Positions 13,631 through 15,969 of a stretch of 24,875 bases of DNA are shown piece by piece. Each line of letters opens with the position of its first letter. Positions within the stretch are counted from its first letter, which is position 1. The DNA is from Candidatus Micrarchaeota archaeon (lineage in GTDB: Archaea; Micrarchaeota; Micrarchaeia; Anstonellales; CAYTXD01). Position numbers and translations under genes: made by a program. The stretch is from contig CAYTXD010000001.1 in NCBI GenBank assembly GCA_964441305.1, positions 1-24,875 on the forward strand, in the 5' to 3' direction. The notes beneath the pieces are model-generated. The model worked only from the letters and a program-made list of their open reading frames with translations, had not been told where the DNA came from and did not search any database.

Positions 13631-14398
13631 ATGCTGAAGCTTATTGGAATGGGAATCTCGGATGAGCGCGACATTTCACTCAAAGGCCTTGATGAATTGA
13701 AAAAATGCGACATTGTATTTGCGGAAAACTACACCAACATAATGAAGGAAGGCACAATCGAAAGATTGGAGGAGATTTCAGGAATGAAAATCGAAATTCT
13801 TGAGAGGGAAGATGTGGAGGGGGAGGAAAAAATTCTCTCGGAAGCGGAAAGCAAAAACGTGGCACTCCTCATACCTGGCGACCCCCTGATTGCAACCACC
13901 CATTCCTCTCTTCTCCTTTCCGCAAAGAAAAGAAAAATCAAAACAAAAGTGGTCCACTCCTCATCCATTCTCAGCGCGGCAATAGGGGAAAGCGGGCTCC
14001 ACGCATACAAATTCGGAAAGACTGCTACCCTCTCATACTGGACTGATTCCTACAAGCCAACAACACCCTACAAAATAATCGAAACCAACAAATCAAACGG
14101 AATGCACACTCTTCTTTTGCTTGACATCAGCACGGAAAAGCAGCCAATGCATGCCTCCCACGCACTTGAGCTCCTCAGAAAAATTGAAAATGAATTGGGT
14201 AAAGGCATTATCAAGGACGACACTGAACTCTTGGTATTGAGCAGGGTCGGCTATGAAGACCAAAAAATCTCATTCGGCACGCTCTCAGCCCTTATGAAAA
14301 AAGGCGAATCGCTGGGCTCCCCTCCTTTCATATTCATCATACCGGGCGAGCTTCATTTCTCAGAGCGGGATTTCATTGAAATGCCCGGACAGAAGTAA
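13631..14398 (+). CDS. dph5: Diphthine synthase (diphthamide biosynthesis methyltransferase)
   Basis: MLKLIGMG...ISLKG, VFAENYT, PGDPLIATTH, SSILSAAIG.SGLHAYKFGKTAT, HTLLLLDI and IIPGELHFSE; SD AGGTG. Confidence 0.96.
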   Translation: MLKLIGMGISDERDISLKGLDELKKCDIVFAENYTNIMKEGTIERLEEISGMKIEILEREDVEGEEKILSEAESKNVALLIPGDPLIATTHSSLLLSAKKRKIKTKVVHSSSILSAAIGESGLHAYKFGKTATLSYWTDSYKPTTPYKIIETNKSNGMHTLLLLDISTEKQPMHASHALELLRKIENELGKGIIKDDTELLVLSRVGYEDQKISFGTLSALMKKGESLGSPPFIFIIPGELHFSERDFIEMPGQK

Positions 14399-14404
14399 CA
14401 AATA

Positions 14405-14412
14405 TTTATATT
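14405..14412 (+). promoter_or_regulatory. TATA box of the NlpC/P60-domain gene (leaderless)
   Basis: TTTATATT, with the ATG at 14434 ~22 nt downstream. Confidence 0.5.
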
Positions 14413-14433
14413 TCCTGATTGCCTAACAATCTC

Positions 14434-15969
14434 ATGAGCAATGTTCTTGCACGTCTCCCGGAATCGCATAAAAAGGTATTAACGAAATTCCTCTCCCTCC
14501 AGCCGGAAATACGCGACAAGGCGATGCTCAGGAAAAAATTCCTCTACTGTTTCCTTAACACCTTGGTTTCCCAGGCAAAGCACGCGATGAAAAAGGGAGT
14601 TAGTGAAAAAAAAATCAACAGTGCGCTGGCAGGTCTTCTTGAAGGGAAACAGAATAAAATAGGAATAGGGTATTTTCCGCAAGAAGATATTTACGGAAAG
14701 ATGGATTTCAATTTAGGCCTTCATCAATGGAAAATGGATAACAAAGGAAAGAAACCGAAGTTGAAATCCCTTCTTGAAATCTATTCCAGCAAGGCCGGGA
14801 GCTTTGAAACAGAAATTTCTGAAAAAGAGAGAATCGACATGAATGCTTTGGTTGTGAACGACAAAAAGTACGAGCTTGTGGATGTTGCGCTTAACTCAAC
14901 GGTTAATACACTTTTAACTCAGATAGACAAGCTAAGGAAAAAGAAGGGATGGAAGGACCTTTCGGATGACCAGTTCAAGAAGAGGGTAAACCGCCTTCTC
15001 TCCAACCTCATGCTCGGGGTCCCAAACGAATACGGAATCGGATTCGACATAGGAAGGGAGAGCCACAAGAAAAAGGTAGTGGACTTTGCGATAGGCCTTT
15101 GGGCATGGAACGAGAAATTCAAGGGCAAAAAGGACTTTGTTCTTGACTCTCTCATTGAGGTTAGGGATGGCATGAAACCCAGAAACCTGCCAAATAGTCT
15201 TTCGGAGGAACAGCGGATGACATTAAGGGAAGTAATCGCATCCGAAGCAGTTAATGGATTTTTTGAAAAACAGCAGAACCTTGATTTTGACGGTGCGGGA
15301 GTTCTTGACATAAGATTGGACGAGGAGGTTTACAGTGAAAACGCTTACGGAGATATAATCGGCAGGCTTGCGAAAATGATTTGGGAGCTATCTTCCATAG
15401 GATACAAGCCGATAAGGGGAAGAGGCGTCAAGGACAACTTATACGGCACCGATTGCTTTGATTTTCCTCGCCTGCTTACATACATTACGTTTTCCATGCA
15501 GGTTGATGTGGATAGCCATCTCAACAAGGCGAGGTTCAACCTTGACTCGGCGGACGGCCGCCTTCTTGGCTATGTAAAAAACGGCAGGCAGGTAAACCTT
15601 TACAACACAGTCTGGGCAAGGAAATCAGATAACCAGAGATGGCGTTACAATCAATACCTTGGAGAACACCCCGGGGCAAAAAAGATGGAAAAAGTTGGAG
15701 ACCTTCAGAACGGAGATTTCATAAAAGTAAGGGGGACCTCCAGCGATGACCATTGGGGAGTTTATTATGAAGGCAACATATACGATTTTGGCGGAAACCC
15801 GATGAAAATACAGAGAATGACCCTTGAGGAGTTCACCGGAAGCAGAAACAAATCCTTCGACAGCTCAACTCCTTTGAGCGAAACGGGGATAAAGGAAGTG
15901 AGGAGAGCCACTGCAGAGTACGTTCCGCCTGATCACAGGAAAGAGGAAGTGCTTGCTTCATCTATCTGA
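14434..15969 (+). CDS. Uncharacterised 511-aa protein with a C-terminal NlpC/P60 (papain-like) peptidase/amidase domain
   Basis: GY..IRG.G......GTDCFDF (Cys341), DLQNGDFIKV....DHWGVY (His440) and IYDF (Asp451). The N-terminal ~300 aa look helical and are unrecognised; no signal peptide or TM segment. Confidence 0.7.
   Translation: MSNVLARLPESHKKVLTKFLSLQPEIRDKAMLRKKFLYCFLNTLVSQAKHAMKKGVSEKKINSALAGLLEGKQNKIGIGYFPQEDIYGKMDFNLGLHQWKMDNKGKKPKLKSLLEIYSSKAGSFETEISEKERIDMNALVVNDKKYELVDVALNSTVNTLLTQIDKLRKKKGWKDLSDDQFKKRVNRLLSNLMLGVPNEYGIGFDIGRESHKKKVVDFAIGLWAWNEKFKGKKDFVLDSLIEVRDGMKPRNLPNSLSEEQRMTLREVIASEAVNGFFEKQQNLDFDGAGVLDIRLDEEVYSENAYGDIIGRLAKMIWELSSIGYKPIRGRGVKDNLYGTDCFDFPRLLTYITFSMQVDVDSHLNKARFNLDSADGRLLGYVKNGRQVNLYNTVWARKSDNQRWRYNQYLGEHPGAKKMEKVGDLQNGDFIKVRGTSSDDHWGVYYEGNIYDFGGNPMKIQRMTLEEFTGSRNKSFDSSTPLSETGIKEVRRATAEYVPPDHRKEEVLASSI

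Follow-up and report, generated by a model that had tools for sequence, protein, structure and literature searches.

Gene and genomic context

The window analysed here, a stretch of 24,875 nucleotides, comes from a Micrarchaeota metagenome-assembled genome (MAG) of 1.39 Mb that is 75% complete. Its forward strand contains an open reading frame at 14419–15969 whose first codon is TTG; translation from the ATG at 14434 gives a protein of 511 aa, hereafter P0001 (Table 1). This is a real gene. The preceding gene, encoding a diphthine-synthase-like TP_methylase, has its stop at 14398, and the 35-nt gap to the P0001 coding sequence holds the heptamer TTTATAT, in agreement with a preliminary description of this DNA that had given the gene a TATA box of its own. 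The case for this box rests on position and not on frequency, because the heptamer occurs four times in the window against 2.8 expected, which is not above chance. Homologous genes in other genomes have comparable boxes 25–35 nt 5′ of their ATG, and the ATG at 14434 is therefore favoured as the start. Judging from these sequence features, it is plausible that the gene has its own promoter and a leaderless or near-leaderless mRNA beginning at the ATG.

The neighbours of P0001 in the window are archaeal housekeeping genes (Nre, DUF63, tRNA-splicing endonuclease, PHP, UPF0047, and NAD kinase). GC content around the gene (0.43–0.46) is unremarkable against that of the window's 1-kb bins (0.41–0.48), and IMG/VR viral contigs contained no relatives of P0001; on these three grounds, a viral or mobile origin was rejected. 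This DNA is present in a microbial-mat metagenome. Immediately downstream, a Prok-JAB (JAMM) gene is convergent with the P0001 gene, the two 3′ ends overlapping by 8 nt. JAB orthologues (37–40% identity) occurred in all five related genomes checked, always on another contig than the family gene, and no JAB gene was found among the neighbours at loci L002 and L003; a JAB partnership was rejected because adjacency was not conserved in any of the five. Two downstream ORFs lack a Pfam match (Table 1).

In four loci of other genomes (L002, L017, L018, and L020), the family gene has as its tail-to-tail neighbour a gene for a conserved ~170-aa lipoprotein that combines conserved Cys pairs, a lipobox-like LFGC, and numerous NxS/T (N-glycosylation) sequons. 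The lipoprotein was rejected as a partner: it is found in 12/401 genomes of the phylum, some of which lack the family gene, it is unlinked to that gene in G224, G382, and the window's genome, and the V-ATPase-to-AMP-ligase neighbourhood of the four loci is syntenic as a whole. The gene preceding the family gene in genus g119 encodes a PAC2 protein (proteasome assembly chaperone; L003/L004), whereas in g142 and on the P0003 contig the family gene is flanked by the V-type ATPase operon and the lipoprotein gene; the family gene has therefore moved between contexts. Conserved neighbours across lineages comprised no immunity-like partner, secretion genes, or mobile-element context.

Table 1. Coordinates of the features at the P0001 locus and of related features in other contigs; positions without a prefix refer to the window.
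Feature	Position	Strand	Remarks
P0001 CDS, 511 aa + stop	14434..15969	+	family member with duplicated N-terminal module
TATA-box-like TTTATAT	14405..14411	+	~26 nt 5′ of the ATG
Helical module copy 1, ~residues 27–135	14512..14838	+	module profile E 1.6e-27
Helical module copy 2, ~residues 142–248	14857..15177	+	module profile E 2.2e-25
Predicted NlpC/P60-like C-terminal domain, residues 296–511	15319..15966	+	AF2 model, fold searches
Cys341 codon, proposed nucleophile	15454..15456	+	in invariant DCFD, 9/9 sequences
His440 codon, proposed general base	15751..15753	+	in invariant HW, 9/9 sequences
Asp451 codon, candidate third triad residue	15784..15786	+	next strand in the model; column variable
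Prok-JAB (JAMM) gene, 124 aa	15962..16336	−	convergent with the P0001 gene
ORF, 175 aa	16373..16900	+	Lys/Glu-rich; no Pfam match
ORF, 135 aa	16897..17304	−	no Pfam match
Lipoprotein gene	L002:6968..7477	−	tail-to-tail with family gene
Lipoprotein gene	L017:2482..2991	−	tail-to-tail with family gene
Lipoprotein gene	L018:2585..3112	−	tail-to-tail with family gene
Lipoprotein gene	L020:955..1467	+	tail-to-tail with family gene
Lipoprotein gene in the window's genome	G000:C41:5848..6384		unlinked to the P0001 gene
Transglut_core match in the window's genome	G000:C142:2405..2710	−	473-aa frame; papain-clan, unrelated to P0001

A rare family of Micrarchaeota

A HMMER search over 1.84 billion representative proteins yielded three matches besides P0001, one of them spurious: P0002, the best match after P0001 (E 3e-12), is an 882-aa tandem-repeat protein in which 12 short stretches matched, and it was discarded as a homologue. 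Iterated alignment searches and whole-genome searches enlarged the family to ten members including P0001. The nine homologues, found among billions of proteins, all derive from Micrarchaeota-type MAGs or metagenomes. They include the database proteins P0003–P0006 (310–350 aa; P0004, with 338 aa, is the copy of genome G382 and P0006 that of G224) and copies in genomes G340, G402, G240, and G408. Two metagenome scans and one scan of genome contigs added zero members.

Surveying homologues across Micrarchaeota, as the preliminary description had proposed, revealed a discontinuous distribution. The gene was present in 6/6 sampled genomes of family f30, was not found in the remaining 23 genomes of the order to which f30 belongs, and was found in 0/60 genomes of the window's own order; the genome of one homologue falls in the same class as the window's genome. 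The P0001 family is real, under selection, rare, and patchy. It is also small and not described before, and every member found belongs to one of a few Micrarchaeota lineages. The enzyme had been called undescribed, and this holds: no model in Pfam, NCBIfam, PHROGs, or PADLOC recognizes any family member scanned, and PDB sequences searched with the single protein and with a profile left P0001 unrecognized. Matches to Ribosomal_L5_C, WIYLD, DUF6950, Cas8a, and ZorC, each in one or two members only (E > 0.02), were dismissed. Literature searches on NlpC with DPANN and on Micrarchaeota peptidoglycan hydrolases found nothing relevant.

Conserved motifs in the C-terminal domain

The candidate catalytic residues and codons named in the preliminary description were correct: Cys341 lies in GTDCFDF, His440 in NGDF...DDHWGVYY, and Asp451 in IYDF. 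Across an alignment of nine C-terminal domains, the G408 copy included (18–27% identity to the query), only eight columns are invariant (N, D-C-F-D, one Trp, and H-W). The two proposed catalytic motifs account for seven of these columns and are therefore more than chance resemblances. Cys341 and His440, on whose conservation among homologues the preliminary reading had depended, are both invariant (9/9). The complete Cys-His-Asp set fared less well, as the Asp451 column is variable (D/S/H/S/H/D/H/N/D); a third polar residue of the kind His/Asn/Gln/Asp/Glu fits 7/9 sequences, and two closely related members have Ser. The Cys-to-His spacing is 99 residues in P0001, 68–89 in the homologues, and 52–84 in 11 canonical Micrarchaeota NlpC/P60 domains. 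The size of the ~50-aa insert after the Cys helix, described earlier, can be taken only as approximate.

Sequence profiles gave no significant assignment for this domain. By hmmscan against Pfam, there was no match to PF00877 (NlpC/P60) at E ≤ 10; a six-frame PF00877 search reached 13 bits, under the cut-off of 23, at 15652–15780, over the His motif, with one equally weak match elsewhere in the same genome. Even so, PF00877 was the sole papain-clan HMM tried that touched the P0001 ORF. The likeness to CHAP and to PeiW/PeiP, a comparison proposed in the preliminary description, was not borne out by HMMs: neither CHAP (PF05257), searched across the genome, nor Peptidase_C71 (PF12386; PeiW/PeiP pseudomurein endoisopeptidase) gave a match at E ≤ 10. 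The Transglut_core (PF01841) and DUF6950 HMMs did not touch the P0001 ORF. In hhalign comparisons with 15 canonical Micrarchaeota NlpC/P60 domains, neither half was significant: the His half gave P 0.12 and the Cys half P 0.023, with 5/100 column shuffles equally good. The local hhalign alignments, likewise not significant, paired the GD...H.G.Y...polar hairpin with the canonical hairpin with motifs in register, placing His440 on the canonical catalytic His and Asp451 on the canonical third-position His.

Predicted fold of the C-terminal domain

The AF2 model of residues 296–511, built from the nine-sequence alignment, has a mean pLDDT of 63 and a pTM of 0.65 (core pLDDT 70–90; 70/216 residues below 50). 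A structured core spans ~residues 300–485, with poorly modelled inserts at ~357–387 and ~407–419, and confidence in the fold is only moderate because the alignment comprises just nine sequences. Cys341 (model residue 46) lies just ahead of the N-terminus of helix 48–59, His440 is the first residue of strand 145–150, and Asp451 is located within the adjacent strand 153–157. On these modelled elements, the order of Cys341, His440, and Asp451 is the NlpC/P60 triad arrangement. The model supports, with moderate confidence, a papain-like α+β core in which the nucleophile helix would pack on an antiparallel sheet.

Structural comparison of this model with 48,161 PDB representatives by VIA-align ranked 8er5_B (NlpC/P60) first (Z 8.9, rmsd 3.1, 109 residues). 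Almost all of the first ~35 rows were NlpC/P60, CHAP, or related papain-like amidases, and C39 peptidases and deubiquitinases appeared further down (Z 3–5). By the tool's own calibration, Z values of 8–9 are common for models without a clear match, so the structural argument lies in the uniformity of the match list and not in the score. Foldseek against the PDB placed E. coli Spr/MepS on top (E 8e-3, probability 0.99), a re-examination of Foldseek's own matches agreed, NlpC/P60 entries in the AFDB clusters were matched at probability 1.0, and most of the ten rows from an ESM-Atlas shape search were NlpC/P60-type, with one more carrying a peptidoglycan-binding domain only. Independently, language-model features of residues 300–511 ranked an NlpC/P60 cluster first (0.93), CHAP clusters also being neighbours. 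The fold search suggested in the preliminary description thus returned a papain-like fold, with NlpC/P60 and CHAP dominating in the PDB, AFDB, and ESM Atlas. Its assignment of an NlpC/P60-like C-terminal domain is upheld by the AF2 model and structural matches, which most likely indicate a non-permuted papain fold with a conserved Cys-His pair. Overall, the C-terminal region is probably a papain-fold domain of the NlpC/P60 superfamily with an active Cys-His pair.

Among known systems, NlpC/P60 domains (MEROPS C40, PF00877) provided the best structural matches (Z 7–8.9, ~100–115 residues, rmsd 3.1–3.4); the examples compared were E. coli MepS/Spr, B. subtilis LytE, the C. innocuum domain (8er5), and Trichomonas vaginalis NlpC A1/A2. 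P0001 shares with them the D-C at the nucleophile and the GD...H-x-G-x-Y...polar hairpin and, as modelled, the same order, with Cys at the start of a helix, His opening a strand, and a candidate polar residue in the strand that follows. Unlike them, it has DCFD in place of the usual DCSG, an invariant HW, and a longer Cys–His spacing; it falls below the Pfam threshold, lacks a signal peptide and SH3b, LysM, or PG-binding domains, and carries a new, duplicated helical module in an organism without murein. CHAP domains (PF05257; endolysins LysGH15 and PlyGRCS) have the same papain-like fold (structural Z 7.4–8.1), but the motif context of P0001 (DC..., H-x-G-x-Y) is nearer to NlpC/P60 and it has no CHAP HMM match.

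The NlpC/P60 superfamily is not new to DPANN archaea, because canonical PF00877 domains were detected in 22/301 Micrarchaeota genomes sampled; the preliminary description overstated the oddity of such a domain in DPANN, although the divergent, signal-less family itself is new. Unlike P0001, these canonical Micrarchaeota proteins score above the PF00877 threshold (up to 85.9 bits); none turned up in the window's genome or the two genomes sampled from f30. Two canonical PF00877 domains lie in very long frames of 2,088 and 2,049 aa (L028, G109:C11, and L029, G100:C28), and several small canonical Micrarchaeota NlpC/P60 proteins (137–259 aa) have no hydrophobic N-terminus. What is new within the superfamily is most likely the divergent, signal-less family together with its helical module.

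A duplicated helical module at the N-terminus

Residues 1 to ~295 of P0001 gave no recognizable match and are helical by prediction, at low confidence (single-sequence AF2 of the whole protein, pLDDT 36). With Lys making up 10.6% of P0001, these results agree with the earlier picture of an unrecognized, helical, Lys-rich N-terminal region of ~300 aa. The N-terminal 270 aa consist of a helical module, specific to this family, that has been duplicated internally: internal BLASTP aligned residues 37–143 with 153–271 (E 1e-9, 30% identity), and the module profile detected both copies (Table 1). Homologues contain a single helical module of ~95 aa, followed by a linker and the C-terminal domain. 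A search of 401 genomes for the module in other architectures found matches only in the P0001 family; weak matches that were inspected proved to be coiled-coil or NFACT-type proteins and were set aside as unrelated to the module.

The short homologues (P0003–P0006, L008, L009, and L020) have a hydrophobic-V-Y-[IV]-P-[RN]-K motif at ~residues 10–25, and the N-terminus of P0001 lacks it. The motif could be a docking or sorting signal.

Proposed mechanism, location, and alternative readings

Our main reading, to which we assign a probability of about 0.7, is that P0001 represents a family with a very divergent, non-permuted NlpC/P60-type C-terminal domain, thiol chemistry, and a helical module for binding. 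The C-terminal ~190 aa would form a divergent papain-fold domain in which Cys341, at the N-terminus of a helix, attacks a bond of the amide or isopeptide type, or possibly an ester. His440, on the facing β-strand, would serve as the general base, oriented by a variable polar residue on the next strand (Asp451 here), and the acyl-enzyme formed in catalysis would be a thioester, as it is in C40 peptidases. The ~100-aa helical module, in tandem in P0001, most likely binds a substrate or a partner. As a working model, we picture a thiol amidase/peptidase that stays in the cytoplasm or is exported unconventionally and whose module(s) would choose its substrate. The fold implies the chemistry; like the location and what the N-terminal module does, this chemistry is inferred.

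With respect to location, none of the nine members analysed has a signal peptide, lipobox, hydrophobic N-terminus, or transmembrane (TM)-like segment. The maximum Kyte–Doolittle 19-residue mean is 0.75 in P0001 and ≤1.7 across all nine, in keeping with the initial view of P0001 as a protein lacking signal peptide and TM segment. With signal peptides and membrane anchors missing from every member, an intracellular site of action on an amide substrate other than murein is most likely, barring export by an unrecognized route. The more specific proposal that in this signal-less Micrarchaeota family the module, single or duplicated, directs the enzyme to a non-murein target, either a host surface or lipid component accessible via the contact between episymbiont and host or an intracellular archaeal γ-glutamyl/isopeptide-linked substrate, is tentative, and we consider it unlikely in that form.

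The preliminary description had named, as one of two candidates, an effector used on a host or competitor envelope. Such an enzyme would be exported or contact-delivered by a non-classical route and would cut the peptide stem of a host or competitor wall, be it murein, pseudomurein, or some other glycopeptide, with the modules serving targeting or delivery. DPANN archaea are commonly episymbionts, the microbial-mat source of P0001 is rich in potential bacterial neighbours, and the closest structures are nearly all peptidoglycan hydrolases, including the Trichomonas NlpC enzymes and the Type VI amidase effectors Tae3, Tse1/Tae1, and Tae4. The latter are small NlpC/P60-fold proteins without a Sec signal that are contact-delivered (Z 5.3–7.1). 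However, they are single-domain proteins with an adjacent immunity gene and a T6SS; for P0001, neither an injection system nor a conserved neighbour resembling an immunity gene was detected. Neighbours of the family gene vary by lineage, and neither conserved secretion genes nor a mobile context adjoin it. A signal peptide, lipobox, or TM segment is present in 0/9 family members, whereas 7/12 canonical NlpC/P60 proteins inspected from the same phylum have a hydrophobic N-terminus. The cell-wall-binding domains SH3b, LysM, and PG_binding were likewise not detected by hmmscan, and a common fold does not define a substrate. The effector reading is not supported, and we regard it as improbable though the best of the alternatives to the main one.

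Somewhat less probable still is that the domain has no papain fold at all. The motifs would then be fortuitous, a shallow model would have been drawn to a common α+β topology, and Cys and His would have another role, e.g. in metal binding. Every sequence-profile test was non-significant, the model is of moderate quality, and its Z values reach only ~8–9, all of which fit such a view. Against it, five structural libraries or methods and the sequence-embedding search converge on one superfamily, and the invariant residues occupy the required positions and elements in the right order, in typical DC and H-x-G-x-Y contexts.

That the shared fold serves not hydrolysis but acyl transfer (LRAT/PLAAT-like) or transglutaminase-like cross-linking (Tgl-like) appears decidedly unlikely. 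In this superfamily, an amine or alcohol can take the place of water in resolving the thioester intermediate, and PLAAT/HRASLS structures and a Geobacillus transglutaminase were among the matches. LRAT/PLAAT proteins, however, are permuted, with His before Cys, whereas Cys341 precedes His440 in P0001; the PLAAT matches span just 83–101 columns (TM 0.22), and the Transglut_core HMM misses the P0001 ORF yet finds another protein of the genome at 84.6 bits, its sole match there (Table 1).

The least probable reading, an isopeptidase for ubiquitin-like (SAMP-type) conjugates partnered with the adjacent JAB/JAMM protein, draws on the convergent, overlapping JAB gene and on papain-fold deubiquitinases low in the structural lists (Z 3–4.6), but these folds score far under NlpC/P60, and the idea gains no support from a JAB neighbour whose orthologue lies on another contig in 5/5 related genomes and which was the sole hint for the isopeptidase or amidase on a protein substrate put forward earlier.

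Implications

NlpC/P60 enzymes are among the main wall-cutting tools of bacteria, phages, and some parasites. Family databases overlook divergent members such as those described here, and the practical value of the P0001 family is modest pending a substrate. Present in DPANN archaea, which have no wall and depend on hosts, a signal-less branch with its own new module could point to a substrate not yet known for the scaffold; alternatively, it could be a factor in archaeal symbiont–host interaction. If the module does direct the enzyme to a non-murein target, the family would represent a new substrate class and a new delivery mode for the superfamily in archaea.
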